This document shows positions 34,230 to 57,657 of a DNA stretch of 64,000 bases, piece by piece (the stretch's first letter is position 1; the number at the start of each line of letters is the position of its first letter). Position numbers and translations under genes: made by a program. Source of the DNA: Gammaproteobacteria bacterium (GTDB lineage Bacteria > Pseudomonadota > Gammaproteobacteria > Chromatiales > Chromatiaceae); assembly GCA_024275295.1 (NCBI GenBank), contig JAJRZI010000075.1, positions 10,903-74,902 on the forward strand. Direction: 5' to 3'. The notes beneath the pieces are model-generated. The model did no database searches. It was not told the origin of the DNA and saw nothing but the letters and a program-made list of their open reading frames with translations.

Positions 34230-34688
34230 TTAGCGTGGTGCCCAAAAACGGTTGAGATAGAACAGGTCATCATAATTAATCATTTCAATCTTCATGACCT
34301 CTGGATATCGGTGCTGGCCGGTTTCATAAATGACAAAGTAGTAGCGCAGGTGTTTGAATTCGTTTATGAGATCCTGATAGTAATAGACGGCGTCAATCTT
34401 TGCTTTTGGGTTGTTGAATATATAGAGCCGGGCAATCTTTTCACTGGAGTAGTTGCTATGTTTTCCAATATCTTCATCACCGCCATCAGTTGCCAGTGCC
34501 CTTGCTTCAGCTTCATTGCCCTTGAGAATAAAATCCATGAAGCGCTGAATGATGGCAATATCTCGCTCTTTGGCGGCTTTGGGTATGCGGGTGACAACAC
34601 GTTGACTGTTTTGGGTGGCGGCATGGGTCTCTGCAGTGACAAAAAACAGGGCTAAGGTGATGGTTAATATAATTGTTATCGTTTTCAT
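34230..34688 (-). CDS. hypothetical periplasmic protein
   Basis: Signal peptide from ATG 34688 (MKTITIILTITLALFFVTAETHA). No family recognised. Last gene of minus-strand cytochrome set 1. Confidence 0.5.
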   Translation of the reverse strand: MKTITIILTITLALFFVTAETHAATQNSQRVVTRIPKAAKERDIAIIQRFMDFILKGNEAEARALATDGGDEDIGKHSNYSSEKIARLYIFNNPKAKIDAVYYYQDLINEFKHLRYYFVIYETGQHRYPEVMKIEMINYDDLFYLNRFWAPR

Positions 34689-34741
34689 GGCTATTCCTTT
34701 GTTTGCCAGCATATTGTGTACGGTTGTAAGTGCTGATTTTT

Positions 34742-37700
34742 CTAGGGTTGTCCGATGAGTCCAGGCGGCCTGGATCTCCTTGAACCTCCGCCTTTCCTTG
34801 AACTGGGCGAATGGAAGTATTTGAATTTTTGCAGGCTATCCAATCCATGACAGTTGCGGCAGATGTTTTTTGAGCTTTTAAAGCGTAAAAAACTGGTTCT
34901 ATTGGTGCCTTCAGTGGGTTTGCCCGGCCCTTTTTTGTCGATACCGGGTGCCCAGATGTGTGGCTCATGACAGGTTGCACAGGTGATCACGCCTGCCTGC
35001 ACTTCGTTACCCTCTTTATCGTAGATAGGCGCATAGCTTTCGTTACCGATACGGTGTGCCTCTGTAACCAATACCTTTCTGGGGTGGATAAATCGAGTGA
35101 CAACCTTCTTGCTGCCGACCCCGTTTTTTGCGTGACAGCCCAGGCACAGGCGCTCCTGTTTTAGCTCACTGCCGCTGCCTGGGGTACGTCCCCAGAGTTG
35201 GTAGCCATCTTTTTGTGCGTTGTGAGGCAGGTGACAGGCGCTACAGATGCCGCTCTGAGCAACGGACTGTTTGAGCCTGTTTTTGCTTTCAGGTGCCACG
35301 ATGGACATGTCATGATCGGTGCCCTGGATGAAGGCTTTTTTGGCGTGGCAGGTGGTGCAGAGCTGTGAATTGGGCAGGTTTGATTTTCTTAAGAAGCTGT
35401 TGCCGCCATCACCTTCCAGATTTTTTCTGGCTGACCCCGGGCCTGCCTGTTCAGGGTCCCAAACGTGGACGTTATGGCAGGTTGGGCAGGTGATGTCGCC
35501 GTCGGGCGTGCGGAATCCATCCCGCGTAAACAGTGGGAATTCGGTTCTGACCTTGGCTTCGCTGTCATAGATATAGAAGGACGCTGTCTCGCCCTGGAGG
35601 GATGCTTTTGCCTCATTCACCCGTTTGTTCATCGGGTGATTGGGGCCTCGCAGGCTCTTTTTTGAGGCCGATTTTCTGCGCCAGTGACAACCGCTGCAAC
35701 GCGCCTCGTTGCGGTTCTCTCCAAGACCCACGCTACGGCTCCACAGGCCATTGCCCCAGGCGTTGTGTACCACATGGCAGGCGCTGCAGACACCTGCTTC
35801 GGCTACCGTCTGTTGCTCCATATTGCGTTCATTGGGTGCGGTAATGCTCAGGTCGTGATCTGTGCCAACAACGTAGCTGTTCTGTTTGTGGCAGGCGGCG
35901 CAGAGTTTGGCTGAGTCATCATTCGGGATGCGCAGAAAGCTGGTCATGCGATCACCCTCCACCTTCATGCTTCCTGGCCCCTTGGGGGTTGCCGGATCCC
36001 ATTGGTGAAGATTGTGACAGGTGGCGCAACTGATGAAACCGTCGGGACTTTTGCTGCCATCCTTGGCGAAGAGTGGCAGTATCTCTTTTGCGGCGGGATC
36101 TATCTTGTCAACGTACAGTTGCAGTGGATGGCTCTCTTTACCCGTGGTTTTATCCTCGGCCAGCCCCCCTTTTTTGTGGCAGTCATTGCAGGCGCGCTCA
36201 ATGATTTCGAGTCCGGCCCCCGTATGTCTAGCCCACAGTTTGTCCCTGTTGGCATTATGCGGTGTGTGGCAGGCACCGCAGACGCCGCTCTACTTGAGGC
36301 TTTGGTCTTTGATGTTTTTCTCGTCCGGTGCGGCCAGTCTCAGGTCATGCTTGGTGCCGGCAATGGCGGCCTGGGCTTTGTGGCAGCTTTGGCAAAGCTT
36401 CCATGTGGTGACAGATTTGCGTAGAAAACTGTTGTTTCCATTGCCGGGAACCTCAGGATGCCCCGGGTTGTTGGAGTCCGGACTCCAGCGGTGGACATCA
36501 TGACAGGTGGGGCATCTGACCTTGCCATTGGCGGATCGTTTACCCGCTTCGGTAAAGAGTGGGAGTGATTCGGGTGCATTTTCCAGTGTGCTGCCAACCG
36601 GGTGTGTCTTGTCGCCAATCAGCGCCTCTTTGGCGATGCCGTCCTTGTTGTGGCAGTTGCTGCACATCTCATCAATAGAGCCGTTGATGGGGTCTCTGGC
36701 CCACATCTTTGGTCCCTGTCCTTTGTGCATGAAGTGGCAGGCGTTGCATGCTCCCTTGTCGATGGTTTTAACTCCGGCGGAGTTTTCATCCTCAGGGAAC
36801 AGCTCGCTGATATCGTGCCGGGTGTAATAGATCGACTCCTTTGAGGTGTGGCAGGTCAGGCAGAGCGGGTCTCCTCCTGCAAACTGCACCAGCAGATGGT
36901 TGTCATCGGTACCATTGTGGGGGGAGTGACAGGTGCGGCAGTTGATGTATTTGCCCTGTCCCAGGTAGGGCTTCTCGCCGTTGTCCCACTTTTCAGGTAG
37001 ATCGGCATCTTTGGGCAGCTCCACATCGATCGGATGAGTGTAGCGCCGCAGTGCCTTGTTGCTGCTCAGGTCGGGTGAGAGGCCATGGCATGCTTCACAT
37101 AACATGGATTGGGAGAGGGATGCCTCACTGTTGGGTATGATGAGGAAATCATCATTGGTGCTGCCGTGGGGAGTATGGCAGGATTCGCAGATAACGGTGC
37201 TGTTTTTGCCAGGTTTTCCACCGGCCTGAATCACCTGATCTGGAAATTCCTTAAACTCAATATTGATGGGGTGGTTGCCTTTTTTGGGGCCGGTCTCCTT
37301 GCCTTTATGGCATCTCTGACAGATGGATGAGTCGATGTTGGGTTCGCGCAGGAATATGGCGGATGCCATGGTGATACGGGTATCTACACCATGTGCAGAG
37401 TGACAGGTGACGCACTGCATCCTGCCTTCGGGATCCAATGGGTACTCTTCAGGGATCGTGACCTTTTCCGAGGGTACGACTCCCGCCTTGTGCCGGTTGG
37501 TCTCCCAGACCCGGAAGCGGGAGTCGGAGATGGAGCCATCGTGGCAGCTGTAGCACATCATCTCTTTTGAGACGGCGCGTTCCTCCGGGATCTCCAGCAG
37601 GTAGCGCTGCCCCTTATCCTCAAGAAAATCCTCCATCCATCGGAAGTGACACATGGCGCACTCTTTGGATGAGTTTTGCCCACCTTCCGGTGCTGCCCAG

Positions 37701-37765
37701 GATATTGTGGGTGCTAAAATGAGAGCCAGTAGCGGAAAAAGCCAGATCAGTCGCAGCTGTTTCAT
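34742..37765 (-). pseudogene. 24-haem c-type cytochrome (about 1006 aa), one frame interrupted by an in-frame TAG at 36290-36292 (pseudogene, read-through or sequence error)
   Basis: ORFs 36290..37765 (12 CxxCH, signal peptide) and 34742..35968 (9 CxxCH) are in the same frame. I translated 35969-36289 codon by codon and found no other stop and three more CxxCH (CGACH, CNDCH, CATCH). Paralogue of 57658..60729. Confidence 0.75.
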
Positions 37766-38733
37766 GATGCGATGCGGTAGACGCTGATGCGGTTGGCGAA
37801 CATCTCTACCACGTAGAAGAGGCCGTTGTTATCAAAATAGAGCCGGGTCGGGGTGGTGAAGCGTTTGACCTTGCCCTGGCCATCACTGAGTACGGCCTGG
37901 AATTTGCCTGTTTTGTCGAACATCTGGATCACGCCCAGATAGGAGTCGGCAATAAAGACCTGCCCTTTGGCGTTGACGGCTACCCCTTTGGGGCGGAACA
38001 GCTCACCCTTTTCAACCCCCCAGCCGCCAATATCGTAGCCAAAGTTGAATCCCTCTTCGGGCAGAATGGTACGTATGCGGGTGTTGATGACATCGACAAT
38101 ATAGAGGGTGCCTGCAGAGTCGATATAGAGGGAGAAGGGCCAGCGGAAGCCATCCTGTTTATGGCTCATGCCGCCGATCGTGCGGATGAACTTTTGCTCT
38201 TTCAGGCTATAGACCAGTACCTGGTGATTCTCATTATCGACCACATAGAGCAGTTGACGTTGGTTGTCGATGGCCACATCGGTGGGGTCGGGGCGCTTCT
38301 GTTTCTTGCTCTGAGGGAGTTTGATCTGATCAAGATGTTTGCCATCAGGGCTGTAGATCTGCACGCGGGCATTGCCTGAGTCGGCGATGTAGACATTATC
38401 TTTGGCATCGAGGGTCATGCCCAGAGGGTAGCTAAGCTCATCGTCTGCGCTGCCACCCCTGCCAAAACTGCCCTGAAATTTGCCTTCATAGCTGTAGATA
38501 ACAACCCGGTTTGAGACGCCATCCAATACCAGGATGCGGTTGTCCGAGGTCATCCGCACATTGCTGGGATGGCGCAGGCCGAGCTTGTCGCCACCTTCGA
38601 TGACTCTGACGGGTTCAACAGGCAGCAGATCGCCGCGGGGGGCGGCGCTGAGCTGTTGGGTAATGAGTAGCAGGCAGGCAGCGGTGAGCAGGGCTGTGGC
38701 CCTCACGGTGTTGAGCAGGGTGAGATTACTCAT
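37762..38733 (-). CDS. NHL-repeat six-bladed beta-propeller protein (periplasmic)
   Basis: ORF 37762..38784. ATG 38733 gives a signal peptide (MSNLTLLNTVRATALLTAACLLL) and an ATGA overlap with the octahaem gene. Repeats such as YIADSGNARVQIYSPDGK and YVVDNENHQVLVYS. ATGA overlap with the 24-haem gene at 37762-37765. Confidence 0.85.
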   Translation of the reverse strand: MSNLTLLNTVRATALLTAACLLLITQQLSAAPRGDLLPVEPVRVIEGGDKLGLRHPSNVRMTSDNRILVLDGVSNRVVIYSYEGKFQGSFGRGGSADDELSYPLGMTLDAKDNVYIADSGNARVQIYSPDGKHLDQIKLPQSKKQKRPDPTDVAIDNQRQLLYVVDNENHQVLVYSLKEQKFIRTIGGMSHKQDGFRWPFSLYIDSAGTLYIVDVINTRIRTILPEEGFNFGYDIGGWGVEKGELFRPKGVAVNAKGQVFIADSYLGVIQMFDKTGKFQAVLSDGQGKVKRFTTPTRLYFDNNGLFYVVEMFANRISVYRIAS

Positions 38734-39686
38734 CACGGCAGCTGGAATCCCTTGATATCTTTTGTATCGTGGCAACCACGACAAATGCCGGCATTCTTTT
38801 GGCTAATGCGCAGGCGCTTATGTGAGTCTGCGCCAGCATTGGCGCGTTCCCTTATCTGTACGCCCAGCTCATGTGGGTTGTGGCAGGTGCCACAGAAAAC
38901 ATTGCCGGTCACGATCTCCAGAGGCAGAATGACATCCTTCTCGGTGGCGATGATCTTGTTGGCCATCTTTGCGTCGGGTGCGGCTGCATGATAGATAGGG
39001 TCACCATTCTCCTTATAACCCATTACGCAGCCTACGGCATAGGCATCATCGGTGTGGCAGCGCAGACAGAGTTGGTCGAAACGACTCTGATTAAAAGTAA
39101 CGTCTTCAATGCTCTTTGCGTGCTTTCGGTCAGGGGTTATGTCGTGACAGTAGGTGCAAACATCTTCTTTAAGTTCGCCCTCTTCGTTGATCTGATTATG
39201 TGGGTTGAGTTTTTTGTATTTGGATCTGTCGTGGCAGTTGTAGCAGAGGTCGGTTCGGTTTTTGTAGGGTGCGCCCCGATGAAAGAGTCGGTTCTCTTTC
39301 TTACGATAAAATTCACTGTTTAGGCATTGGTAGCTGATCTTATGACAGACGGCGCAGGTGATTTGATTGTCGCCATTAAGGCCAGAAAGAAACTCCTCTG
39401 GCATCTTCTCCATCATGGTTCGAGGTGGAATCATGCAGGTTGCGTGGATGTATTTGTCTTTTGAAATGGTAGCGTGGCAACGGTTGCATAGCATGTTGAT
39501 GTCGCCATTAAAACGGAGTGCTGTTCTTCCGCCTCGTTCGGGTATCTGCTCATGACACTCCAGGCACTTGTCCTGTGTTTCTGACCAGTGTGGATAGATG
39601 TTCAGGTTTTCACTTGCAAAGGTTTGTGAGAACAGCAGTGAGATGAGCAGTGTTGTTATAAATAGTCGCATCAGTTTATCTTTCAT
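38733..39686 (-). CDS. octahaem c-type cytochrome (periplasmic)
   Basis: Start at ATG 39686 (MKDKLMRLFITTLLISLLFSQTFA signal peptide). 8 CxxCH. Co-linear homologue of 52034..53041. Confidence 0.85.
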   Translation of the reverse strand: MKDKLMRLFITTLLISLLFSQTFASENLNIYPHWSETQDKCLECHEQIPERGGRTALRFNGDINMLCNRCHATISKDKYIHATCMIPPRTMMEKMPEEFLSGLNGDNQITCAVCHKISYQCLNSEFYRKKENRLFHRGAPYKNRTDLCYNCHDRSKYKKLNPHNQINEEGELKEDVCTYCHDITPDRKHAKSIEDVTFNQSRFDQLCLRCHTDDAYAVGCVMGYKENGDPIYHAAAPDAKMANKIIATEKDVILPLEIVTGNVFCGTCHNPHELGVQIRERANAGADSHKRLRISQKNAGICRGCHDTKDIKGFQLP

Positions 39687-39959
39687 AGCGTTATATCTTT
39701 TCCCCAAGCCATCCTTGCCACCAAAATAGACCTTGCCAGAAGCAACGGTGGGGGAGGTGCAGATCAGATCACCGGCATCAAATTCCCACAGTGGCTCAAG
39801 CGGTGGTGCAAGATCAGGGGTCGATTGGGTGTTGAGTTGTGGGTTGTAGAGGAACATGGGCCAGGAGGCGGACTCTGCTGCTCCAGGAGGATGCCATATT
39901 GTCAGAAGGAGTGACGATAGCCACTTATGAGGTTTAGTTGTTGCCAATAGTGCGCTCAC
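39687..39959 (-). pseudogene. remnant of the 5' end of a PQQ/BamB-like beta-propeller gene, in frame with the octahaem ORF
   Basis: The upstream 91 codons of ORF 38733..39959 read ...SWPMFLYNPQLNTQSTPDLAPPLEPLWEFDAGDLICTSPTVASGKVYFGGKDG. This aligns with the N-terminus and first blade of 50786..51916 (WNALNGGSRHLSHSPDVIPLEPKNVWQVGIARRFYASPVVIGDRIFVAARGK). Confidence 0.45.
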
Positions 39960-40084
39960 ACCGTTAAGTCTTATTTCGCCAAAATGTCCAGGAATAGAAT
40001 CTTATAGGTAAAAATAACAGTGTTGTTGTTAGTGACAGAGGAATCCGCTTGTACGATGGCCTCCTCTGTCGCTGTTGTTGCCCC

Positions 40085-40909
40085 CTACGGCGTGTTTCTT
40101 CTGCCTCGGGTTCTGGAGGCAGGGTCAAACATCGTTGGCAGGTAAAATTTACTGTACTTGGTGATCATACTCGCCACTTCGCCGGTCTCCAAGCGGTTTG
40201 CAACCACGGGTGAGTAGAGGAGCGATCTGAAGTTCAGCAGACCGTTCTTTGTATGACACTCATCACAGAAGATGGGTTTTTGTGAGATCTCCTTATGGAT
40301 GCGAACCTTTGCCTCTGCCTGTTGGTCGGCGTTAAAGGTGGCGCGTAGGCTGAGGTACTCCTCAATGAATGCCTTGTCGGCAGATTCATCTAGCCGTCGG
40401 CCTATGCCATCCTCCGCAACTTTGATAGGTACAATCATGGCACCATAGCTGCCCGGTTTGCCCTCAAGCCTGCTGAGTTCCATGCCGGTTTTTTTATTGA
40501 GCCATTTATAGACGATGTGGTCACTCTCCGTGGGTCTGATATGGCAGGTTTCGCAGGCGGTGAAAAAGGCATGGGCATTCAGGAAAGCCCGTACATCGGG
40601 TGCCTTTGAGTGCGGATAGTTGCCGTGACACTTCAGGCAGAGTGAGATGGACTCGGCACCTTCCAGTACAGCCTGGTCAACATTATGAAAATGTTCTCTT
40701 GAGATGCCTGCGCCAGTGGCAATCTGTTCCAGCGCGGTCTGATCACTGCTGCTGACCAGGCCGGTGTCAAAGGTGGCACGGAAGAAGGTGATCCACAGCA
40801 ACCAGAGTGCAAAGCCGGCAAGCAGGATGAATATGGATGCCATCAGGATATCCACCAGTAACCGTTTAAAGGGGGGCATGTCGGTGTGATGATTATGCAT
40901 TGTCGCCAT
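40085..40909 (-). CDS. membrane-anchored trihaem c-type cytochrome
   Basis: 274 aa. One N-terminal TM (LLVDILMASIFILLAGFALWLLWITFF). CLKCH, CETCH, CDECH. Homologue of 55469..56383. Confidence 0.75.
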   Translation of the reverse strand: MATMHNHHTDMPPFKRLLVDILMASIFILLAGFALWLLWITFFRATFDTGLVSSSDQTALEQIATGAGISREHFHNVDQAVLEGAESISLCLKCHGNYPHSKAPDVRAFLNAHAFFTACETCHIRPTESDHIVYKWLNKKTGMELSRLEGKPGSYGAMIVPIKVAEDGIGRRLDESADKAFIEEYLSLRATFNADQQAEAKVRIHKEISQKPIFCDECHTKNGLLNFRSLLYSPVVANRLETGEVASMITKYSKFYLPTMFDPASRTRGRRNTP

Positions 40910-41615
40910 TCCCCTCTGATGTTGCTTCTGCTTTTTCTGTGGCCAGCCGCTCCAGTTCGCGTTCGTACCAGAGTCCGTGCTCTTCTTTCATCATGCTTTC
41001 TGAGATCTTGCCGTCAATAAATGCTTTGTTCATAGGGTAGACATGGGGGTTGTAATGCACTGAAAAGATATGCCCGATAATGATGGCAAGGGCTGCCAGG
41101 GTGGCTTCACCCAGGTGGAAGGTGTCTGCGATATCCAGCCAAAATTTGGGCCAGTATTGCTCTGTCCACATCATGGTGCCGGTGACGATCACGATGAACA
41201 TGCCAAAGTAGACGGAGAAGTACTCTACTTTTTCCAGATAGGTGAAACGCTCCATTTTAGGTCGTGCCTCTCTGAAACCCAGCATGTAGCTGACGTTTTG
41301 TACAGCAAAGGTGGCGTCGCTCATGCGTGGCAGCATGTCTTTGATCCAGCTGCGTCCCTCGGCTTGTAAAACAACATAGCCCAGGTGGTAGAGGCAGACC
41401 AGTGTTACAGAGACCCCCGCTATCCGGTGCACAATGCCGCGCCAGTAGAAGATGGTGTCACCCGCACTGCCAAACATCTCAATGACCCAACGCTCGCCCA
41501 TCAGCATGAACCCGGTGAGGATCAGCAGGCCGGTGGAGACGAAGAGTATGACGTGTTGTATGCGTTGGCTTTTGGTAAGCCGAACAAAGCTTCTTTCATT
41601 TTTGCTATGGCTCAT
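40893..41615 (-). CDS. dihaem cytochrome b, FdnI/HydC (Ni_hydr_CYTB) type
   Basis: 240 aa with 4 TM. RIQHVILFVSTGLLILTG signature and conserved His in TM2 and TM4. ATGA overlap with the upstream cytochrome c gene. Confidence 0.8.
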   Translation of the reverse strand: MSHSKNERSFVRLTKSQRIQHVILFVSTGLLILTGFMLMGERWVIEMFGSAGDTIFYWRGIVHRIAGVSVTLVCLYHLGYVVLQAEGRSWIKDMLPRMSDATFAVQNVSYMLGFREARPKMERFTYLEKVEYFSVYFGMFIVIVTGTMMWTEQYWPKFWLDIADTFHLGEATLAALAIIIGHIFSVHYNPHVYPMNKAFIDGKISESMMKEEHGLWYERELERLATEKAEATSEGNGDNA

Positions 41616-42739
41616 GATGTATGTCTCCCCAACTTGGCAGCTCTGAGGGCAATTTTGCGCTCTCTGTGTGTGGCGTAAAGATCGGCTAAACGGTGAAATC
41701 CCAGTCCTCCCACTACGGCGATAATTAGGATCTTATAGAACAGTGCGATCATCTCAATGACCCAGGCTTGGAACTCTTGCTCCTCTTGATAGATGGTTAC
41801 GCCATCTTCATCTACACGCTCAGTCATAACGTTGGATGGGTGCGCTTTACCTTTGTTGGCAAAGGCTTCCTGTGCATCGGCATGACAGCCTGATTGCCGA
41901 CAGTCTCTCAGTTTGTTGTCGGGATGGACAGGCGATGAGCTATCGGTGTGAGAGATAATTCGGTGAGGTGAAAATCCCAGCTGATAGGGCGCATGACAGT
42001 TCAGGCAGTTGGCGACATCTTCATCACCATAGACGATGGCTTTGCCGTGGAAGGTGTCTTTAAAGCCAATAACCACGTCCACTTCATGCCGATCCATCTT
42101 CTCTTTGTCGGCATGACATTTGCTGCACAGGGCGACGACCTGCTTGGATGATCTACGGGTTTGGGCACGGTAGAACATGTGCTTGTAGAAGCGATTGGTC
42201 CAGGCCTCTGATTCGTGGCATTCCAGGCAGACCTTGATGAACTGCATTGATTTCAGCTCTTTACCAATACCGATCTGGTAAGGCTTGTTGGTGTGGCAGT
42301 CCTTGCATTTGGGTAGATCCTTGATGAGGTCGGGTTTTTTTGTACCATCCGGGCCATGGGCGCTCTTTCTCAGGTCGTTCACGATGGATTTGTGTGAGAA
42401 GGCCCGCCCGGTGGATGGGTCATTCAGATGGCAGTCGGTGGCGCAGTCTACGTTTTTGACATCGGTATGAGGTATCTCTTCAACGCCGGTGTGGCAGTTT
42501 TTACATCTGAGCTTGCCGTGGTAAGAGGCTTTGAAGAGCTCTTCATTGACATAAAAGATGCGCTTGACCGCCTTCTGTTCCTCATTTTTGGCATACCGCC
42601 CCAGGCCAGCGTATTTATGGCACATGAGGCAGTTTTCATCATCTACGGCCATGGCAGCAGCCGGGATGAAAAGAGTAAGAAAGGCGGTCAGCAGAAATAG
42701 GGCAACGGTAATGTCCCGTGCGGTGTGCTTGGTCTTCAT
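41612..42739 (-). CDS. multihaem c-type cytochrome with C-terminal membrane anchor (8 haem sites: 6 CxxCH + CX3CH + CX4CH), CbcA-like
   Basis: ORF 41612..42772. Signal peptide from ATG 42739. C-terminal TM (VIEMIALFYKILIIAVVGGLGF). Homologue of 53076..54185. Confidence 0.8.
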   Translation of the reverse strand: MKTKHTARDITVALFLLTAFLTLFIPAAAMAVDDENCLMCHKYAGLGRYAKNEEQKAVKRIFYVNEELFKASYHGKLRCKNCHTGVEEIPHTDVKNVDCATDCHLNDPSTGRAFSHKSIVNDLRKSAHGPDGTKKPDLIKDLPKCKDCHTNKPYQIGIGKELKSMQFIKVCLECHESEAWTNRFYKHMFYRAQTRRSSKQVVALCSKCHADKEKMDRHEVDVVIGFKDTFHGKAIVYGDEDVANCLNCHAPYQLGFSPHRIISHTDSSSPVHPDNKLRDCRQSGCHADAQEAFANKGKAHPSNVMTERVDEDGVTIYQEEQEFQAWVIEMIALFYKILIIAVVGGLGFHRLADLYATHRERKIALRAAKLGRHTS

Positions 42740-42939
42740 ACGGAGATTAATTCCACTGTAGTGGTTGGGCATGCTGAGGTCATTCGAATCACTTGTTTGC
42801 AGGGAGGTAAGGGGGGACTAGGGTGTTAAGTTGGCTTGACATTTAATACGAAACTCTATACTTGAGAAAACAAAGGGTTATTTTGACGTGAAATAGAAAG
42901 CGTTGCAACCTACTATTTTGCTTAGGTATTTCCTCATCT

Positions 42940-45925: not shown

Positions 45926-47053
45926 GTGAGTAGATCAACTAATTGTCTTCAACGTTGTTATGTGTTGCTTGTTACATTGCTGTTATTGGTTGCTGCAGTG
46001 GGACTCAGTGGTTGCGTCGAAAAGCCGAGGAAGGTTCTGGAAGAGCCAAAAAATCTAGTCTGGCCTATGCCGCCAGAGCAACCAAGGATCCGCTACATAA
46101 AGAGCTGGCGTGGGCAAATAAATTTTAAAAAGCGCAGTGACTTTAAAGATGCGCTGCTTGGCATTGATCATCAGGGTCTTTATCTGGCCAAGCCATATGG
46201 TGTTGCAGTCAATGCAGATGGTAGCCGTATGTATGTTACAGATGCCAAATTGCGAGGTGTGGTTGTCTTTGATATGAAGAAGGAACAGGTCTACATGTTG
46301 AAAACGGATGCAATGGGTGGGTTGGCATCACCTGTTGAGGTGCGTGTTGATAGTAAGGGGCGAATCTATGTTACGGACAGCTTTGGTGGAAAGCTGATGG
46401 TCTATAAGCCCAATGGAGAGACTTTGAGAACATTAGGAAGGGCTGATGGGATGAAACGGCCAACAGGCTTGGCACTTGATGAGGCGCACAACCGAATCTA
46501 TGTTAGCGATGTAGTGAGTCACCAGATTATGGTGTACGATTTTGATGGCCATTTTATTAAACGCTTTTCTGAGCGGGGATCTGATCCGGGTTATCTAAAC
46601 TTTCCAAATAACCTGGCAGTGGATAAGGATGGAAAGATATACGTTACAGACAGTGGTAATTTCAGGGTGCAGATTTTTTCACCTGAAGGTGAATATCTCT
46701 CAGGCTTTGGAAAGCTTGGGGACGGCTTTGGAGCTTTTGCCCGGCCAAAAGGGATAGCAGTAGATAGTGATAATCATGTATATGTACTTGATGCGGCATT
46801 TGGAAATTATCAGATTTTTAATAATGCGGGCCAATTGCTCTTGTTTGTTGGTACAGTAGGCAGAGGCCCCGGTATGTTTTGGTTGCCTGCGGGCATGTAT
46901 ATTGATAATAACGATAAAATTTATGTTGTTGATTCGCTTAATAAACGGGTGCAGGTTTTCCAGTATATAAAGGAAGAGGAGACTGAAAGCACAGCAATAC
47001 CTAAAGCAGTCTCAAATGGAGGAACTGCTAAGGCGGTTGATTCAGGTAGGTAG
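45926..47053 (+). CDS. NHL-repeat beta-propeller lipoprotein
   Basis: 375 aa. Lipobox LSGC. Repeats YVTDSFGGKLMVYKPNG, YVSDVVSHQIMVYDFDG, YVTDSGNFRVQIFSPEG, YVVDSLNKRVQVFQ. Confidence 0.85.
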   Translation: MSRSTNCLQRCYVLLVTLLLLVAAVGLSGCVEKPRKVLEEPKNLVWPMPPEQPRIRYIKSWRGQINFKKRSDFKDALLGIDHQGLYLAKPYGVAVNADGSRMYVTDAKLRGVVVFDMKKEQVYMLKTDAMGGLASPVEVRVDSKGRIYVTDSFGGKLMVYKPNGETLRTLGRADGMKRPTGLALDEAHNRIYVSDVVSHQIMVYDFDGHFIKRFSERGSDPGYLNFPNNLAVDKDGKIYVTDSGNFRVQIFSPEGEYLSGFGKLGDGFGAFARPKGIAVDSDNHVYVLDAAFGNYQIFNNAGQLLLFVGTVGRGPGMFWLPAGMYIDNNDKIYVVDSLNKRVQVFQYIKEEETESTAIPKAVSNGGTAKAVDSGR

Positions 47054-47363
47054 TTGGGCTTTGAAAGTGGAGTCTTATTAAAATTCCATTATTTCAGGAT
47101 TGATAAGACTAAGTTGCTTATATAATTTGATTGTTTTTTTTTAGTAAAGCACTGATAACAGCATGAAATATAAAAACATTATGCTTTATTATGAGATGCT
47201 CAAGCACAAGATGTGTCATGGAGTAGAATCTAGCTAAAGGCAAAGTGCTGTGCTAAAGTTGAATGTAAGGGCTGGCTCTTAATACGCACGGCAGGGCGTG
47301 GGTAAGCTGAATTGAGTATACTGTTGTTACAGCGTTACAGCATATTAATTGCGGGGGGTAAAA

Positions 47364-48137
47364 ATGCGCAGGAATGTATCACTATTAGTAGCTGCGGGTG
47401 CGGTCTTAGCGTTCTCGCTAGGCGGGATAGCAAACGCAGGTATCGAATTAACCAAGCACAATATGTCTTCTGGTGCAACGAGTACCATTAAGTCTGTAGT
47501 TGGTGCAACGGGTACAGACGAGATCTGTATTTTTTGTCATACGCCACACATGAACGTTACCAAGGGTGATGTGTTGCCACTTTGGAATCACAGGTTGAGC
47601 AGTGGCGTGGGTAGTTACACTATGTATAAGAGTGCTTCATTCAATGGGGCTGATAACTATGGTCTTCTCCAAGCAGTAACATTAAACACCCCAACTACCC
47701 CTGCGGACTTAGTTACAGGCAATATGTCTGTAACCAATCTGTGTCTCTCATGTCATGATGGCACGCAGGCTGTGAATGCAATGTTTAATCCGCCAAACAG
47801 GCTTAATGCCAATCCAGTTATGACAGGCGGGGGTGGTGCAGGTAGCGCCTATATTCCCAACACTTCAAATGCCTATCTTGGTACAGATCTTCAAAATGAT
47901 CACCCGGTAAACTTTACCTATTCAGTATCCCAGACTGTTTCTGATGAGACCTTGCATACAGAAGGAGGGGGTGGTGTACAGTGGAATGGTGAGACTGTTC
48001 GGTTATTCAATGGTACGGTTCAGTGTGCTTCGTGCCATGATCCACATAAGGACTATGTTACAAGTACAGAGTTTACTCCATTCCTCCGCGTGACAATTTC
48101 AGGAAGCAAGCTGTGCCTGACATGTCATGATAAGTAG
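47364..48137 (+). CDS. tetrahaem c-type cytochrome, small secreted family (HN-x-S ... IC-x-FCHTPH ... PLWN)
   Basis: ATG 47364 is preceded by GGGGGG. Signal peptide. CIFCH, CLSCH, CASCH, CLTCH. Paralogous to 61013..61891 and 63094..>64000. Confidence 0.8.
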   Translation: MRRNVSLLVAAGAVLAFSLGGIANAGIELTKHNMSSGATSTIKSVVGATGTDEICIFCHTPHMNVTKGDVLPLWNHRLSSGVGSYTMYKSASFNGADNYGLLQAVTLNTPTTPADLVTGNMSVTNLCLSCHDGTQAVNAMFNPPNRLNANPVMTGGGGAGSAYIPNTSNAYLGTDLQNDHPVNFTYSVSQTVSDETLHTEGGGGVQWNGETVRLFNGTVQCASCHDPHKDYVTSTEFTPFLRVTISGSKLCLTCHDK

Positions 48138-48162
48138 CTAGGAGAATTTACTCCCGCATTAC

Positions 48163-48192
48163 AAAAAAGAGGGCTATTAAGCCCTCTTTTTT
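48163..48192 (+). terminator. rho-independent (bidirectional-looking) terminator
   Basis: AAAAAA-GAGGGCT-ATTA-AGCCCTC-TTTTTT. Confidence 0.8.
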
Positions 48193-49001
48193 GTTGTATA
48201 AAATGCTTATTTGCCATAGCTAGAATATGGCATCATGTAAGGCCTGTTGTTTAATCGAAGTACCATTTCTGCTATTTTCTTTAAGTATTTCTATTGTTGT
48301 CAGATCTTTGTTGTTTCAGGCTGCTGGTAAAAACTATGCACCTTGATGCAAGGCTTTTGTGTTTTTACTATTCAGCAGCCTCACTGGGTCTCTACAAGGG
48401 GCTGCATGTCGCCTGGGAGCGGAAGCGTTAAGTTGCAATAAAATAATCTATGGACTTGCGATCCATAGTGGTTGAATGCTCTGATCAGAGTCCCTTGGGA
48501 ACGTTAAGTGGTTCCATGTCTTTGCGCATCTTCTTCGGCACGTGCCTCCTTCCTTAATTGTAGATCTGGAGATGGGTATCGCCTGCTGGATGTGATCTAT
48601 TTCCGCTTTGTTATCCTTGGCAGTTAGTGCTTAGTGAAGAGGTGGTTAGTATTTTGGTTTAGCGGGGGAATCAAGTACAATCACCGATTCATTTGTGGAT
48701 ATATGCAACGATGGGGAGTCGTGCAGATATTAACATGCCCGGCAATAGCTCGCTGGCTGCTGGGTCGTGTGCATTTGATTGGTTTTTGTGGATTGAAATA
48801 GATTGTATTTCTAACAATTAATAAAAATGCTGATTTAGAAAAAAGTCGGCATTTATCCTTATTGATTATAGTGTTGGGGGAGGGTTGTATTCGTGAAGCT
48901 AGATTGCAGGCAGATCAGCCAATACAAAGAGGTGTATTTAAAGCTATGGAATGGCGATTGGTGAAATCTCACTTTAATTAAGCAATATAAGCATTGGCCA
49001 C

Positions 49002-50765
49002 ATGAGTTCTGTTAGCAGGACAGCATTTGCTTTGCTGGTGATTATTTGCGCTACTGGGGGTTCTTTTCCTGTGATGGCCTCGCTTCGGGATTATGGTATA
49101 TACCTGGGCTCAATAGGGGGAAGTACGTCGTTGCGCCTGGATAATAGGCTCAGAAAAAATACAACCAATAAGGAAAAATCAAATAAGTTAACTTCGACTA
49201 CAGTGATCCGTACAGAAGGTTTTATTTGGGATCCTCGTTTTATGACGGTAGATCTGAACTTAAAGTACGCTACAAGTAGAAGAAAGGCTGATACCTACGA
49301 TTCCGATGAGGATTCTATTGGCTTCAGGTTCAAATCTGTTCTTTTCCCTCGCTGGCGCTACCCATACTCACCAATTCGTTTGTCTGCCTCTAAAACAACA
49401 CGCACACTTGATAGTAATGGAGGAGGCGGTGTTGAGACAGGCTATACCCAGATGTCATTAAATTGGGGATTGGTTCAAAAACAGTTGGGCCGGGTGCGAA
49501 TGCGCTATAGTTATACCCTTGAGGAATCTACTGGGTGGATGCGTGAGCGGGATACCGTTAGAAACAGATTTCAGGCTCATGCAAGTAAACGAATCCTAAA
49601 AGGTAAGTGGGGTGAAACGCGCTCAAGGTATGGGTATCAGTTTGATACCTTTGATGAGCGAGTAGAAGATACGTTTGATGTGCAGCACTATCTTTTTATG
49701 AATAATGATACGAAGTTTGGGAGGAAAGCAGATTTAAGCTCTAATGCCTTGTTTTACCAGCGATACTATGATGGGCGTGATGATGGCATTGATGATGAAT
49801 ACGTATTTGCATCAAATGCAAATCTAAAGGTTCAGGAATCAGAGAGATTTCAACATTATTACTCATTGGGTTTTAGGTCTGATGATGAGAGTAATAATTA
49901 TTTTGGATCTGCAGGTGCAAGTTATAGTTATACCCATGACTTTGATAAGTATTTAAAAGCTACTGCCTCTACTGGGGCATTAGCTCGCTTTGGTGGAGGA
50001 TCAGCCGAGCAGTCCTTAATGCGGTTTAATGCAAATGCAAATGGCAGATTGGCTTATAGGCTAAGCTACGATGTTTATCGGCTAAATGCGCACTATAGTA
50101 TGCATGTGCGATCGCCTGCATGGGGTTCTGGATTGCGCAGTGCTCAGTCAGAGGTGGTTCGAATTAGTCAGTCTGCATCACTGGCGGTTTCCAGGCCAAA
50201 GAATCCATTGTATTCAGATATAGCTACTCTTCGAGCACAATATGAGATGGCGGAAGTGGATAGTTATTCATACTCTGCGGACTATTCAGCCAGGAGTGTA
50301 TATGAGTTTTCAAATAAAGCCTCTTCTCTGATCTCCGGGAATGTTACGGCATCTCAGCCAAGCCGTGGGGATTTCAGTCTTGGATTTGGTTCGTCGGCAA
50401 TGCTTAGGTATCGTTTTGGTCGTAGAGTGCATGCTTCTGTCAATGCCCGTCAGCGATGGAGGAAACAGGCCAATAGAGCGTTTTCTCTATTTGGTATTAA
50501 GGGGCTTGTTTCAGGGCGGCTCTATAGGCGGTTTAATGTAAAATTTTCTAGTGCATTAGGGTGGACAAGACGAATTGAAGAGATTCAATATAGTAATACC
50601 AGCCCTAGAGATGAAATTAGAGGGATGGCTGAAGTTAGTTCATCAATAGGAAAGCTTGTAACCTCATTAAGGTATACCTATAGCGAGACTGATTACGATG
50701 GCGACGTTTCATCTGACCAGTCAATTATGCTCCAAATCAAACGTTTTTTTGGCTGGCGACTATAG
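49002..50765 (+). CDS. putative outer-membrane beta-barrel protein (porin-like component of the cytochrome cluster)
   Basis: 587 aa. Signal peptide (AFALLVIICATGGSFPVMA). Tyr/Arg/Ser/Asp-rich with many alternating amphipathic stretches (RMRYSYTLEES, RLAYRLSYDVYRLNAHYSMHV, LRYTYSETDY). Aromatic-rich C-terminus (KRFFGWRL). No family recognised. Confidence 0.55.
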   Translation: MSSVSRTAFALLVIICATGGSFPVMASLRDYGIYLGSIGGSTSLRLDNRLRKNTTNKEKSNKLTSTTVIRTEGFIWDPRFMTVDLNLKYATSRRKADTYDSDEDSIGFRFKSVLFPRWRYPYSPIRLSASKTTRTLDSNGGGGVETGYTQMSLNWGLVQKQLGRVRMRYSYTLEESTGWMRERDTVRNRFQAHASKRILKGKWGETRSRYGYQFDTFDERVEDTFDVQHYLFMNNDTKFGRKADLSSNALFYQRYYDGRDDGIDDEYVFASNANLKVQESERFQHYYSLGFRSDDESNNYFGSAGASYSYTHDFDKYLKATASTGALARFGGGSAEQSLMRFNANANGRLAYRLSYDVYRLNAHYSMHVRSPAWGSGLRSAQSEVVRISQSASLAVSRPKNPLYSDIATLRAQYEMAEVDSYSYSADYSARSVYEFSNKASSLISGNVTASQPSRGDFSLGFGSSAMLRYRFGRRVHASVNARQRWRKQANRAFSLFGIKGLVSGRLYRRFNVKFSSALGWTRRIEEIQYSNTSPRDEIRGMAEVSSSIGKLVTSLRYTYSETDYDGDVSSDQSIMLQIKRFFGWRL

Positions 50766-50785
50766 CCAAATAGTGATGACACGGA

Positions 50786-51916
50786 TTGAAAATGTATCTT
50801 CAAGCTAGAGAGATTAAGTTTACCCGTTACCTGTTTAACCTGTGTTTGTTGATGGTAGTGCTTTCTAATGTAAACGCTGCTGATTGGAATGCGCTTAATG
50901 GTGGGTCACGGCATCTGTCGCATAGCCCGGATGTTATCCCTTTAGAACCTAAAAATGTATGGCAAGTGGGTATTGCCAGGCGCTTTTATGCGTCACCTGT
51001 TGTGATTGGTGATCGAATCTTTGTTGCGGCGCGTGGGAAACGTATTAAGGCGCTTAATATCAAGGATGGCGCTATTGTCTGGGAAGTGGCAGTGAAGGGG
51101 ATCCTGTCAGCCACACCGGCGGTTTCGGGTAATATATTAGTAGCGGGCGCAAAAGATGGTGTCGTAACTGCTTTAGATATATCAGATGGAAAGATTATTT
51201 GGCAGGTAAAGACAGGTGGCAAAGTCCTTTCCTCTCCTGTTATACTGGATGAAACGGTGTTTATAGGTTCAAATGATCTGCATTTGTATGCTCTGGATTT
51301 ATCTACTGGGAAGGTGCGCTGGAGGTATCGCGCTCATGACTATAAATATGGCGGCCTGTATGCATCTCCATCACTCGATGATAAACGGGTGTTTATAGGG
51401 GGCAAAAATGGTTACCTGTATGCAATAGATATAAAAACAGGCAAGCCAGTCTGGGGAGTGGCGCTTGGATCATCGATTTATGGGGCTGCTGCTGTTAGTG
51501 GAGAGCGCCTCTATATAGGTTCATACGACCGTAATCTGTATGCATTGCAAGCAGAGGATGGAAAAGAGATCTGGCGAGTTGAATTGGATGATTGGCCCCA
51601 AGGTGCACCTGTACTGTTTGAGGGTAAAGTGATTATTGCAAGTCGTAGTGGCATTTTATATGGAGTAGACGCTGAGGAAGGCCGCATATCATGGCGTATG
51701 GATCTGGAAGAGGGGCTACGGCATAGCCCTGTTGTAGATTCAAATGGAACGGGCGTGATTGGGACTACTGGCGGTAGATTGCTAGCTATTGACTTGCAAA
51801 AACAAGAGTTAATATGGGAGCAGGAAATGGAAGGGGGGGTATTTGGGCAAGTTGCCGTTACTGAATACGGTATTGTCGTGGCGACACTGGATGGGGTTGT
51901 GACATTGCTGCATTGA
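50786..51916 (+). CDS. PQQ-like/BamB-like eight-bladed beta-propeller protein
   Basis: 376 aa. Eight repeats of the form SP-V-x-x-x-x-(V/I)(F/Y)(V/I)G-x-x-x-G-x-(L/V)YA(L/I)D-x-x-x-G-x-x-x-W. Confidence 0.8.
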   Translation: MKMYLQAREIKFTRYLFNLCLLMVVLSNVNAADWNALNGGSRHLSHSPDVIPLEPKNVWQVGIARRFYASPVVIGDRIFVAARGKRIKALNIKDGAIVWEVAVKGILSATPAVSGNILVAGAKDGVVTALDISDGKIIWQVKTGGKVLSSPVILDETVFIGSNDLHLYALDLSTGKVRWRYRAHDYKYGGLYASPSLDDKRVFIGGKNGYLYAIDIKTGKPVWGVALGSSIYGAAAVSGERLYIGSYDRNLYALQAEDGKEIWRVELDDWPQGAPVLFEGKVIIASRSGILYGVDAEEGRISWRMDLEEGLRHSPVVDSNGTGVIGTTGGRLLAIDLQKQELIWEQEMEGGVFGQVAVTEYGIVVATLDGVVTLLH

Positions 51917-52033
51917 GATTGATTTTTGATGCTGTAAAGTTTTTTCCTTTAATTAATTGTGTATAATGCCCGCAAGATTTAATTATGATTCCCCTTATAG
52001 TAAATAGTTATATTTTTTAATGACTTATTTAAG

Positions 52034-53041
52034 TTGGGAGAGTGTGTGGTCGTTCGTGCATTAGTCACGCTATTGATATTGTGTTTTGCAGCAATGAGTA
52101 GTGCTGCGTGGGCGATAAGCGAGAAAGAGCTTTTAAATAATCCTGAGCAGATACACAGTCTGCTCGCAGATGAAAAAATTGCCTTTGAAGATGTCCCCAA
52201 CCCTCATTGGCGAGCAGATGCATGTATGGCCTGCCACCTTGAAAAGGCAAAAGAAGATAATAAAATGCCGCCCCTGCGAAGTACTGATTACAATGGGCTA
52301 TGCGGGAATTGCCATGATCCATCGCTGGTAGCTGAGTATATCCATGCCGTTGATATCGAGCCTCCGGATGAATTTCTAGACCGCATGCCTGAAGACTTTT
52401 TAGCGGCACTGGATCGTGGAGAAGGTGTGCTGACCTGTATCGTCTGTCATGATATGGCGATACATTGCGATGAAGGTTCGTTTGAACAGGCTGAGATAAA
52501 TCCGCTGTTTTTTCGCGGCGGGCCATATTCATCGCGTACAGATTTATGTTTTAATTGCCACGATCCAGAAGATTATGAGCGCTACAACCCCCACGATCAG
52601 GTTACTGATGAAGGGGAACTGGATACAGAGCAGTGTTTCTTTTGCCATAATGTAACGCCGAATCGTGCTGTTGCGCGAAGCATCAACGATGTCACCTTTA
52701 ATGTGGTAGAAGATCTAAAAAAATTATGTACAGGTTGTCACCCTTATAGTCCACACCCTGGAGGAACCTGGTTTGGTGCTACCGGCAACAAAGTAGGTGG
52801 AGGCCCTAATCACTTAAAGGTTCCTCCAGAGAAAATCCGGAAGCGCCTGGAAGTGATGGAAGCGAAAAGTGGGGCTGTGATGCCGCGAGAACCTGGAACA
52901 GGTAGCATCTTTTGTGCAACCTGTCATAATCCGCACGAAAGAGGCGTACAGTTCAGCAGGAAGGCGGATGTTGGTGCAGATGGATATAAGCGCCTGCGGC
53001 GAGGAAAATTCGAGATATGTCTGGCATGCCACGAAATGTAG
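52034..53041 (+). CDS. octahaem c-type cytochrome (periplasmic)
   Basis: 335 aa (TTG 52034 or GTG 52046 start). 8 CxxCH. Co-linear with 38733..39686. Confidence 0.85.
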   Translation: MGECVVVRALVTLLILCFAAMSSAAWAISEKELLNNPEQIHSLLADEKIAFEDVPNPHWRADACMACHLEKAKEDNKMPPLRSTDYNGLCGNCHDPSLVAEYIHAVDIEPPDEFLDRMPEDFLAALDRGEGVLTCIVCHDMAIHCDEGSFEQAEINPLFFRGGPYSSRTDLCFNCHDPEDYERYNPHDQVTDEGELDTEQCFFCHNVTPNRAVARSINDVTFNVVEDLKKLCTGCHPYSPHPGGTWFGATGNKVGGGPNHLKVPPEKIRKRLEVMEAKSGAVMPREPGTGSIFCATCHNPHERGVQFSRKADVGADGYKRLRRGKFEICLACHEM

Positions 53042-53075
53042 CAGTCAGTCAGTGTTACAACAAAAATGTTAGGTA

Positions 53076-54185
53076 TTGTCCATTAGTAAAATAAGGTTGC
53101 TGGTTTGCGCGATTTTTGTCGCGCTCAGTCTGCCCTCGATATCCCAGGCATTTGTGGATGACGAGGCATGTCTGATGTGTCACAAGTACCCCAAGATGGG
53201 GCGGGTTGACGATGAGGGATTCCAGAAGGCTTATTATGTGATACCCGAGGTGTTTTCAAAGACGGTGCACCGCAATGTGCCCTGTCGCGACTGTCACTAC
53301 TACATCAAGCAACTGCCTCACCGTCCAGTGAAGGAAGGTGTTCGTTGTGACCGCGAATGTCACTCGATTGAGAATCCATCAACGGGCAAGCCGTTCAGTC
53401 ATAAGCCTATCTATGATACCTTCAAGAAAAGTGTTCATGGGCGTGAGAAGCTGGAGACGGGGCTGGATAACGACAAGCCCTATTGCATTACCTGTCACAC
53501 CAACCCTCTCTACAATAAAGAAGAGGAAGCGCCACCAAAGAAAATCACAGACCGCTGCGTTGTATGCCATGAGGATGAGAAATTCGCCTTTAAATGGTAC
53601 AACCATACCAGTCGGCGCATCCGAGAAGTGAAGCGTGATACTCAGGATATCATCAAACTCTGTTCTCGCTGCCATGCTGACCAAGAGCTCCTTGCCCGGC
53701 ACAAAAAGGATGCAGATGATACAGGGCGTGAGATTGGGGAAAAGTACACTATTGCAGCTGAGTCATACCAAAACAGTTTTCACGGCAAGGTCGCCAAATA
53801 CGGTAATAAACAGGTTGCCAACTGCCTGAGTTGTCATGCGTCACCAGATAACTACTATATGAGTGTGCATGAACTGCGCCCATCTCGGGATCCGTTATCA
53901 CCTGTTAACAAGAACAACCGGGTGAAGACCTGTCGGCAGTGCCACAAAACAGCGGATGCCAATTATGCGGCCATTGATCCGCACCCAACCGATGAGAAGG
54001 AACTGAATGAGTTTAACTATTATGCAGAGATTATCTACGGCATCGTGGGTGATACAGCGCTGGCGCTACTGGTTGGACTCTCCTTGTTTGAAACTATTGG
54101 GCGTAAGCGTGATGGTATAGCGTGGGTTCTGCGCAATGGTACAACCTGGCGTGGCCGTAGCCGACGCAAACGCAAGTCAGCGTAA
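53076..54185 (+). CDS. multihaem c-type cytochrome with C-terminal membrane anchor (7 CxxCH + 1 CX3CH), CbcA-like
   Basis: 369 aa. VDDEACLMCHKYPKMGR. C-terminal TM (IIYGIVGDTALALLVGLSLF) and a basic tail. Confidence 0.8.
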   Translation: MSISKIRLLVCAIFVALSLPSISQAFVDDEACLMCHKYPKMGRVDDEGFQKAYYVIPEVFSKTVHRNVPCRDCHYYIKQLPHRPVKEGVRCDRECHSIENPSTGKPFSHKPIYDTFKKSVHGREKLETGLDNDKPYCITCHTNPLYNKEEEAPPKKITDRCVVCHEDEKFAFKWYNHTSRRIREVKRDTQDIIKLCSRCHADQELLARHKKDADDTGREIGEKYTIAAESYQNSFHGKVAKYGNKQVANCLSCHASPDNYYMSVHELRPSRDPLSPVNKNNRVKTCRQCHKTADANYAAIDPHPTDEKELNEFNYYAEIIYGIVGDTALALLVGLSLFETIGRKRDGIAWVLRNGTTWRGRSRRKRKSA

Positions 54186-54278
54186 AAGATATTTTAAATA
54201 GCCTAAAACTATGCTGCTTTAGCACTGTAGCTATAGGTCAAAATTAGTCACAGATTAACCAATGGGGACAACACGAGA

Positions 54279-55295: not shown

Positions 55296-55408
55296 TGTCA
55301 CAGCTGACAAAAGGGCAAAAATTCATAGCATATGGATCTCTTCTCTTTGTGTTGGCTTGGACAGTCTTTGGTGTCTATGCCATTTGGCTAATGACTTCTG
55401 AAGGTTGA
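55292..55408 (+). CDS. possible 38-aa single-TM peptide
   Basis: Below the ORF-track length cut-off. ATGA overlap with the cytochrome b stop. Sequence MMSQLTKGQKFIAYGSLLFVLAWTVFGVYAIWLMTSEG. Confidence 0.35.
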   Translation: MMSQLTKGQKFIAYGSLLFVLAWTVFGVYAIWLMTSEG

Positions 55409-55468
55409 TGCCTTGCGTATCGCTTCAGGTAACAACAAATACTTTTACAAAATTGAAGGTTTCTGGTT

Positions 55469-56383: not shown

Positions 56384-56557
56384 AAAGAGTTCTATATGGA
56401 GCTGGTATTTTTGGGCAAAGAAGATGATGAAGAAACCAAGGCTTTAGTTGGCGAAGATTCAGATCTTCCAGAGATGGATGACAATATGAAGAATGATCCA
56501 CGCGGCTGGTGGCGTCAGGGTGCTGACGAGTAAGTTGCTTAAGGCATAATTAGCTAA

Positions 56558-56644
56558 CCCGGATGTTTCATGAATCACGCGAATTCATGAAACATCCGGG
56601 CTAAGTGTTACAGGGGGTGAGCTCATAACTGAACCACCCCCTGT
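56558..56644. repeat. two consecutive perfect hairpins (18-bp and 10-bp stems)
   Basis: CCCGGATGTTTCATGAAT (56558-56575) pairs with ATTCATGAAACATCCGGG (56583-56600). ACAGGGGGTG (56610-56619) pairs with CACCCCCTGT (56635-56644). There is no U-tract. Confidence 0.7.
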
Positions 56645-57655: not shown

Positions 57656-57657
57656 CC

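Follow-up and report, generated by a model that had tools for sequence, protein, structure and literature searches.

Four in-frame stop codons in three linked multihaem cytochrome genes of a gammaproteobacterial contig

We analysed a stretch of 64,000 nucleotides from a Gammaproteobacteria bacterium assigned to the Chromatiaceae (GenBank assembly GCA_024275295.1, contig JAJRZI010000075.1, positions 10,903 to 74,902 of the forward strand), referred to here as the window; positions are counted from its first letter. The window carries two clusters of multihaem cytochrome genes, which we call set 1 and set 2, and in each of them the gene for a 24-haem cytochrome is interrupted by an in-frame stop codon (Table 1).

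The interrupted 24-haem cytochrome gene of set 1

The frame of the set-1 24-haem gene (37765..34742 on the minus strand) has 1007 codons, and its translation contains a single internal stop, codon 492: a TAG at 36292..36290 in the context AAA GAC CAA AGC CTC AAG TAG AGC GGC GTC TGC GGT GCC TGC CAC. The translated junction reads KNIKDQSLK, stop, SGVCGACHTPHNANRDKLWAR; that is, the residues DQSLK are followed by the stop and then by SGVCGACHTPHNANR. There are 24 CXXCH haem motifs in the frame, 12 on either side of the TAG, the 13th beginning four residues past it. The split frame is beyond what chance would give, because 515 codons stay open after the TAG, all haem motifs are kept and the whole frame is collinear over its full length with intact orthologues (a single ungapped-frame tblastn segment against orthologues of 1005–1022 amino acids, a.a.). 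The original prediction, made from the sequence alone, had described the TAG as splitting a 24-haem frame without any other stop, had placed two open reading frames (ORFs), 36290..37765 and 34742..35968, in that one frame, and had expected a truncated product of 491 a.a. with 12 haems; the translation, the ORF list and the motif count bear out all of this. It was also right that the downstream part has neither a signal peptide nor a start before 35968, the first ATG, GTG or TTG past the TAG, which leaves 107 codons without a start.

The two halves of the frame match generic multihaem models only (Paired_CXXCH_1, cytochrome c7/c3 and MtrC-like domains); no NCBIfam model scored above its cut-off for the 24-haem protein, and it has no close solved structure. 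The fused frame has >1200 homologues, mostly of ~1000 a.a., and 132 of the 193 homologues retrieved contain exactly 24 CXXCH motifs (range 14–35).

In an alignment of 60 full-length homologues, the column of the TAG holds a sense residue in all (∼60) of them: Glu in the three closest proteins (83–84% identity), and E, Q, R, K and others in more distant homologues. All eight close orthologous sequences that were examined (83–84% a.a. identity) have Glu, which is encoded by GAG in the one aligned at the DNA level (contig L001). A degenerate DNA pattern searched against metagenome contigs found only four orthologues (82–83% nucleotide identity), again all with Glu; a 228-a.a. query centred on the stop returned one distant match and did not recover the known 84% orthologues. 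Because all homologues carry a sense residue at this site, the TAG is derived and not conserved, and the comparison points to a lineage-specific G-to-T substitution on the coding strand (GAG to TAG). The original prediction had compared the repeats within the protein and placed the TAG where CAG or GAG would be expected, one base away. The repeat sequences are present as it quoted them, the TAG aligns with E/Q in other internal repeats, and the GAG of L001 and the Glu of seven further orthologous sequences agree with it; the tblastn comparison with related genomes that it had proposed finds a sense residue everywhere. Its interpretation of the set-1 TAG is thus supported. Gene conversion or read cross-mapping from the set-2 paralogue was also considered as a source of the TAG and rejected, since at the corresponding position the paralogue offers neither a T nor a codon that can be aligned.

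Three further stops in the set-2 cluster

The same prediction had taken the set-2 24-haem paralogue (∼37% a.a. identity to the set-1 protein) as an intact comparison, which does not hold: its frame of 1023 codons has an in-frame TGA of its own (at 59992, codon 779). This TGA replaces a Gly that is invariant in 31 of 31 aligned orthologues, in the motif SGGRVSCPSCH. Two more stops lie in the neighbouring gene for a membrane-anchored trihaem cytochrome (354 codons; its orthologues have 353–362 a.a.). The first, a TAA, stands where the three close orthologues from contigs L002–L004 have Glu and a Thiobacillus homologue has Ala. The second, a TAG, replaces a Tyr that is invariant and shared even by the set-1 paralogue and the Thiobacillus homologue, and the conserved frame runs on for 49 codons to a natural TAA at 56531..56533. 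At the DNA level (one aligned orthologue for each site) the orthologous sense codons at the four stops are GAG, GAA, TAC and GGA, so that each stop is a single-base change from sense.

We compared 20 cluster genes with orthologous proteins. All give single full-length tblastn segments without frameshifts, and the only stops are the four at 36292, 55757, 56381 and 59992; three genes are interrupted and the 17 others checked are intact. Genes outside the clusters are fully covered by Pfam, and none shows a suspicious in-frame extension. Intactness at the level of orthologues covers, outside the clusters, uvrB and the adjoining aminotransferase gene (the only syntenic genes when synteny around UvrB was compared in 80 genomes), and for the other non-cluster genes it rests on the Pfam coverage and the read-through-extension checks. 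Two further candidate lesions were dropped. An apparent loss of the start codon in the set-1 trihaem gene was rejected, as the orthologue's gene call is over-extended, and a suspected truncation of the 262-a.a. cytochrome at 48137 was rejected because its length fits that of the 260-a.a. counterpart in L004 (the ends were not compared, the L004 gene being cut by the end of the locus). The result added here to the set-1 observation is a set of four derived stops in three linked cytochrome genes of this assembly, with no other sign of decay. Given the TGA in the paralogue and the two stops in a third gene, we see a pathway-level pattern and not an isolated lesion. The original prediction had listed a recent nonsense mutation, read-through and a base-call error as the options for the set-1 TAG; all three are still live, and the three additional stops shift their weights.

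A further observation concerns the DNA just past the trihaem cytochrome gene, where a perfect 18-bp inverted repeat (CCCGGATGTTTCATGAAT and its complement, with a 7-nt loop) lies at 56558-56600. It falls within a 47-nt insertion (∼56553-56599) relative to L002, is absent from L002 and occurs nowhere else in the window. It could act as a terminator or represent a small mobile hairpin element.

Two other readings of the stops were weighed. In the first, TAG would be translated as pyrrolysine and the TGA of the paralogue as selenocysteine. In favour of such programmed recoding, the TAG and the TGA are in frame in redox proteins and are followed by long conserved frames. However, the orthologues have Glu and Gly at these sites, rather than Lys/Pyl or Cys/Sec, and a stop occurs in none of them; TAG and TGA end 37 of the 48 genes of the window in the normal way; and a TAA is also in frame in the set-2 cluster, for which no recoding system accounts. 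No tRNA was found within the window, there is no SECIS-like or other Rfam match, and no stable hairpin follows the set-1 TAG or the set-2 TGA. Pyrrolysine and selenocysteine were rejected on these grounds; the comparative data effectively refute recoding, and we leave it next to no probability. In the second reading, the 491-a.a., 12-haem product would itself be functional, a modular repeat protein remodelled by shortening. The N-terminal half does retain the signal peptide and 12 complete motifs, and the family is modular, with the range of motif counts given above and with 21, 24 or 27 haems in PCC3 cytochromes (PMC10734462). Against this stand the predominance of exactly 24 haems among the homologues and the lack of any half-length close orthologue. 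The stop lies four residues ahead of the next CXXCH and not at an obvious module end, the downstream half still carries the signal of purifying selection seen between intact orthologues and so was needed until very recently, and the other three stops (one at the invariant Tyr of the trihaem protein) look like plain damage. A functional truncation is accordingly rated highly improbable.

Table 1. Positions of the two cytochrome clusters, their genes and the in-frame stops in the window
Feature	Position	Strand	Remarks
Set-1 cluster	34230..42772	-	all intact except 24-haem gene
Set-1 multihaem cytochrome	41612..42772	-	set-1 cluster
Set-1 cytochrome b561-type membrane protein	40893..41615	-	PF01292
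Set-1 transmembrane-anchored trihaem cytochrome	40085..40909	-	set-1 cluster
Set-1 second multihaem cytochrome	38733..39959	-	set-1 cluster
Set-1 NHL beta-propeller	37762..38784	-	set-1 cluster
Set-1 24-haem cytochrome, whole frame	34742..37765	-	1007 codons, 24 CXXCH, signal-peptide-like N-terminus
5' ORF up to TAG	36290..37765	-	491 a.a., signal peptide, haem motifs 1-12; expected product if termination is efficient
In-frame TAG, codon 492	36290..36292	-	orthologues GAG (Glu)
3' in-frame part	34742..36289	-	515 codons, haem motifs 13-24, no signal peptide
ORF in 3' part of set-1 gene	34742..35968	-	in ORF list
Set-1 160-a.a. protein without assigned function	34230..34712	-	set-1 cluster
Set-2 cluster	45926..64000	+	extends beyond window end
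Set-2 porin-like protein (putative)	49002..50765	+	587 a.a., no Pfam match, signal peptide; adjoins 4-haem cytochrome
Set-2 cytochrome b	54279..55295	+	PF01292
Set-2 membrane-anchored trihaem cytochrome gene	55469..56533	+	354 codons, two in-frame stops
In-frame TAA	55757..55759	+	Glu in L002-L004 (GAA in L002); Ala in Thiobacillus homologue
In-frame TAG	56381..56383	+	orthologues TAC (Tyr)
Set-2 paralogous 24-haem cytochrome frame	57658..60729	+	1023 codons, one in-frame TGA
In-frame TGA, codon 779 of set-2 24-haem gene	59992..59994	+	orthologues Gly (GGA in L002)

Selection, error and loss of function

We found no sign of released constraint: the ratio of nonsynonymous to synonymous substitution rates (dN/dS) is not raised, and the cluster genes compared have no frameshifts. 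In set 1, dN/dS is 0.07–0.11 downstream of the TAG and 0.06–0.08 upstream, as against 0.07–0.105 between intact orthologues. For the two interrupted set-2 genes we counted lineage-specific changes, with L002 as the sister lineage and L003 and L004 as outgroups: 95 synonymous, 21 missense and three stop changes are found on the window lineage, and 107, 37 and none on that of L002. Missense changes of the window at otherwise conserved set-2 positions are few and mostly conservative. The window lineage has thus fared no worse than L002. Normal purifying selection acted on the interrupted set-2 genes along practically the entire branch, and the stops are either very young or not real. Random unselected substitutions in these genes were computed to give 3.3–4.3% stops and 70–74% missense. 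Plain neutral decay and plain random sequencing error would each bring many missense changes along with the stops, and the data as a whole speak against both.

It is still conceivable that the cells carry GAG, GAA, TAC and GGA and that the stops come from errors in consensus, base calling or polishing, or from the choice of minor alleles by the assembler. The genes otherwise look healthy: their frames are intact, none of the 24 haem motifs is missing and lineage-specific dN/dS is low. The collections searched contain no independent assembly of the species. On the coding strand, three of the four stops are G-to-T changes (P ∼0.01–0.03 among random nonsense paths; this was noticed post hoc and calls for caution), a class associated with oxidative damage. 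There is also a precedent in the PCC3 porin gene of Leptothrix ochracea, which was split by a sequencing error (PMC5566968). But random errors produce stops only ∼4% of the time, so that four stops imply ∼100 errors; most of these would be missense changes at conserved sites, which are not observed. Nor do errors have a reason to fall solely in three functionally linked cytochrome genes: all four stops lie inside the two clusters, which make up 41% of the window (0.41^4 = 0.03). The window-specific G:C-to-T:A changes comprise 12 synonymous, five missense and two stop changes; being mostly synonymous, they show no burst of damage-type errors, and a G:C-to-T:A mutator or an oxidative burst is likewise unsupported. 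The paralogues, at ∼37% a.a. identity, are too diverged for read cross-mapping. We consider an artefact unlikely on balance, while granting it real weight.

Another pattern concerns the base after the stop. All four stops precede A (TAG-A, TAA-A, TAG-A and TGA-A; P ∼0.005 given the stop-mutable codons, again post hoc and to be read with caution), and A is the rarest +4 base at the natural stops of the window (nine of 48). The stops could thus be real and leaky, near-cognate tRNAs reading through at ∼1% or more, in which case the alleles would be hypomorphs from which a trickle of full-length protein is still exported; such alleles may persist under purifying selection through a weak termination context. 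In Escherichia coli reporters basal read-through is 0.4–2%, and TGA-A is slightly leakier than TGA-T (PMC10959953). The variability of the set-1 TAG site in homologues (E/Q/R/K) would make insertion of Gln, Lys or Tyr harmless there, and the downstream halves show no relaxed constraint. Opposed to leakiness are the absence of a stop at any of the four sites in any orthologue, the lack of an Rfam match, and downstream RNA that is no more stable than shuffled controls (z = -0.97, -0.97, +0.87 and -0.30 for the 69 nt after each stop). Misincorporation is likely to be harmful at two of the sites, the invariant Gly and Tyr, and the two stops in the trihaem gene would lower its full-length yield to ∼1e-4. 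For programmed read-through, neither a relative with a stop nor a stable downstream structure was found, and its sole support is the A at +4 of all four sites. Leaky stops therefore seem quite unlikely to us.

The reading we favour, with about an even chance of being correct, is that the four stops are real, very recent loss-of-function alleles in one electron-transfer pathway. The set-1 gene would encode a Sec-exported periplasmic 'wire' cytochrome of ∼1000 residues and 24 haems, within a cluster of NHL-propeller, cytochrome b and multihaem cytochrome genes. TAG should be read as a stop here, because more genes of the window end naturally in TAG (19 of 48) than in TGA (18) or TAA (11); RF1 would then terminate at codon 492, and the main exported product would be the 491-a.a., 12-haem N-terminal half. 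The distal 12-haem half would not be made, apart from the ∼1% basal read-through typical of bacteria, and, lacking both a start codon and a signal peptide, it could not be produced on its own. The same type of lesion would have arisen three times in the paralogous cluster, as the TGA in the 24-haem gene and as the TAA and TAG in the trihaem gene. The lineage, or part of the sampled population, would thus have just lost, or be losing, the pathway via knock-out alleles: the periplasm-spanning cytochrome would be halved in set 1, and the membrane-anchored and 24-haem cytochromes would be broken in set 2. Most probably neither conduit works, where we infer both efficient termination at the stops and the loss of pathway function. 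Trace amounts of full-length protein are plausible for the two 24-haem genes, each with a single stop, but implausible for the trihaem gene with its two. The confinement of the stops to the clusters, with other genes of full length by Pfam coverage, speaks for a pathway-level release from, or selection against, function over random error.

Several points weigh against such recent loss-of-function alleles. That the stops occur in the cells' own DNA is inferred from the assembled sequence, and no reads or independent sequence of the same species were found, look-ups of the exact products (the 491-a.a. and 778-a.a. fragments and UvrB) came back empty, and a 33-mer with N at the stop had no match among genome contigs. 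The three set-2 stops predict ∼55 accompanying missense changes, against a total of 21 observed; even with every one of these taken as unselected, the probability of at least three stops is ∼0.14, and it drops much further if the missense changes are mostly old. Simple neutral decay is therefore a poor fit. Selection for knock-outs leaves the three lesions in one operon unexplained, as one would suffice, and four nonsense lesions without a frameshift are somewhat unusual for natural pseudogenisation.

As a whole, the data mildly favour a process that enriched stops in this pathway, for instance selection for knock-outs or the pooling of a population's knock-out alleles in one consensus; preferential survival of leaky stops is an alternative to it. 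Two bolder versions take the stops as real and not as simple junk, and even jointly they appear very unlikely. The alleles might be hypomorphs in which the stop-A context, leaving ∼1% of full-length protein, throttles the very costly 24-haem cytochromes, or they might be independently selected knock-out 'cheater' alleles, pooled in one consensus, of an extracellular electron-transfer function that would act as a public good in a biofilm population. Either version would explain the excess of stops over missense changes together with the otherwise strong purifying selection.

The clusters and their likeness to known electron-transfer systems

The gene order of set 1 matches that of the orthologous contig L001 (GCA_021648685.1, JAKISI010000001.1), the closest set-1 orthologue contig, with 82% DNA identity to the window. 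L001 is labelled 'Candidatus Polarisedimenticolaceae' (Acidobacteriota) at NCBI, at odds with the gammaproteobacterial UvrB of the window, whose nearest relatives are from uncultured Gammaproteobacteria (84%) and Sedimenticolaceae (81%); mis-binning, mislabelling or a recent transfer are possible explanations of this conflict. The set-2 cluster begins with genes for an NHL protein, a 4-haem cytochrome, the 587-a.a. porin-like protein, a PQQ-like beta-propeller and two multihaem cytochromes, and continues with cytochrome b, the transmembrane-anchored trihaem cytochrome, an NHL protein, the 24-haem cytochrome, a cytochrome, an NHL protein and a cytochrome. This order is conserved in L003, L004 and the Thiobacillus contig L089. 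ResB/CcsA haem-attachment genes stand at the end of the clusters in L003 and L089, and also at the end of contig L002. Found in both this gammaproteobacterium and a Thiobacillus contig, the set-2 gene order marks a widespread, still unnamed type of cluster with an inner-membrane component unlike that of canonical PCC3.

Elsewhere in the window, two ORF-poor gaps of ∼864 bp each were seen, at 8278-9140 and at 48138-49001. The second lies between the 4-haem cytochrome gene and the porin-like gene, and since L004 has an equivalent gap of ∼840 bp, it may contain regulatory sequence that has been conserved, or a small gene missed by annotation. A block at ∼12000-22000 (plus strand) has 60–64% G+C (42–58% in the rest of the window) and a strong T-over-A skew, and encodes a major facilitator superfamily (MFS) transporter, a Hyf/Ech/Mrp-like membrane complex (NuoL/M/H/K-like subunits, a fused 30-kDa/49-kDa NiFe-hydrogenase-like subunit and a 20-kDa subunit) and then TrkH; it may be a horizontally acquired island.

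Two known systems resemble these clusters. In PCC3, a predicted porin-cytochrome conduit, the periplasm-spanning multihaem cytochromes carry 21, 24 or 27 haems, and the inner-membrane protein is defined by a length of ∼300 a.a., an SGXXG motif and two WX3HX13H motifs (PMC5566968, PMC10734462). The set-1 24-haem protein is similar in being of Sec type, ∼1000 a.a. long and highly repetitive, with 24 CXXCH motifs, and it has homologues at 38–54% identity in Gallionellaceae, Sulfuricella and Thiobacillus; the set-2 cluster also encodes the putatively assigned porin-like protein and further multihaem cytochromes. In contrast to PCC3, the inner-membrane partner here is a cytochrome b561/Ni_hydr_CYTB-type protein together with a transmembrane-anchored trihaem cytochrome, NHL beta-propeller genes flank the 24-haem gene, and in the window the 24-haem gene is interrupted by a stop. 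No candidate gene for an outer-membrane porin was found in the set-1 cluster. Both cytochrome b-type proteins (54279..55295 and 40893..41615) lack the SGXXG and WX3HX13H motifs, and because of this the clusters are better described as PCC3-like than as PCC3.

The Uet cluster of 'Ca. Tenderia electrophaga' is an electron-transfer cluster of NHL-repeat proteins and multihaem cytochromes (bioRxiv 10.1101/2022.05.06.490989, where NHL proteins of Desulfovibrio ferrophilus and Geobacter are also cited). It shares with the clusters described here NHL beta-propellers encoded beside large multihaem cytochromes, a beta-barrel protein (here putatively the porin-like one) and dedicated CcsA/ResB maturation genes. 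The likeness is at the level of gene content; Uet has the 11-haem UetJ and trihaem c7 proteins whereas a 24-haem protein is found here. The undecahaem UetJ was flagged as a 'pseudogene' by NCBI and yet is highly expressed (bioRxiv 10.1101/2022.05.06.490989), so an annotated break in such a cytochrome gene need not mean that its function is lost.

Disruption of a gene by a nonsense codon is in itself ordinary; only the pattern seen here is mildly odd. As in an ordinary nonsense pseudogene, a derived in-frame stop is one base from a codon that is sense in all relatives, and the rest of the frame can still be read. The difference here is that four stops affect three linked genes in which frameshifts are absent and missense changes are not in excess, which points to a very recent origin, selection or an artefact and not to long neutral decay.

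If the stops are artefacts, three genes are wrongly split, or open to annotation as pseudogenes, in this assembly. In practice, internal stops should be looked for whenever multihaem cytochrome genes are counted in genomes of this group. Should the stops be real, the organism would have just switched off both copies of a conserved and widely distributed 24-haem electron-transfer module; metabolic inference from gene presence (iron or electrode oxidation or reduction) would change accordingly, and the organism would offer a natural knock-out of a pathway that so far has only a predicted function.

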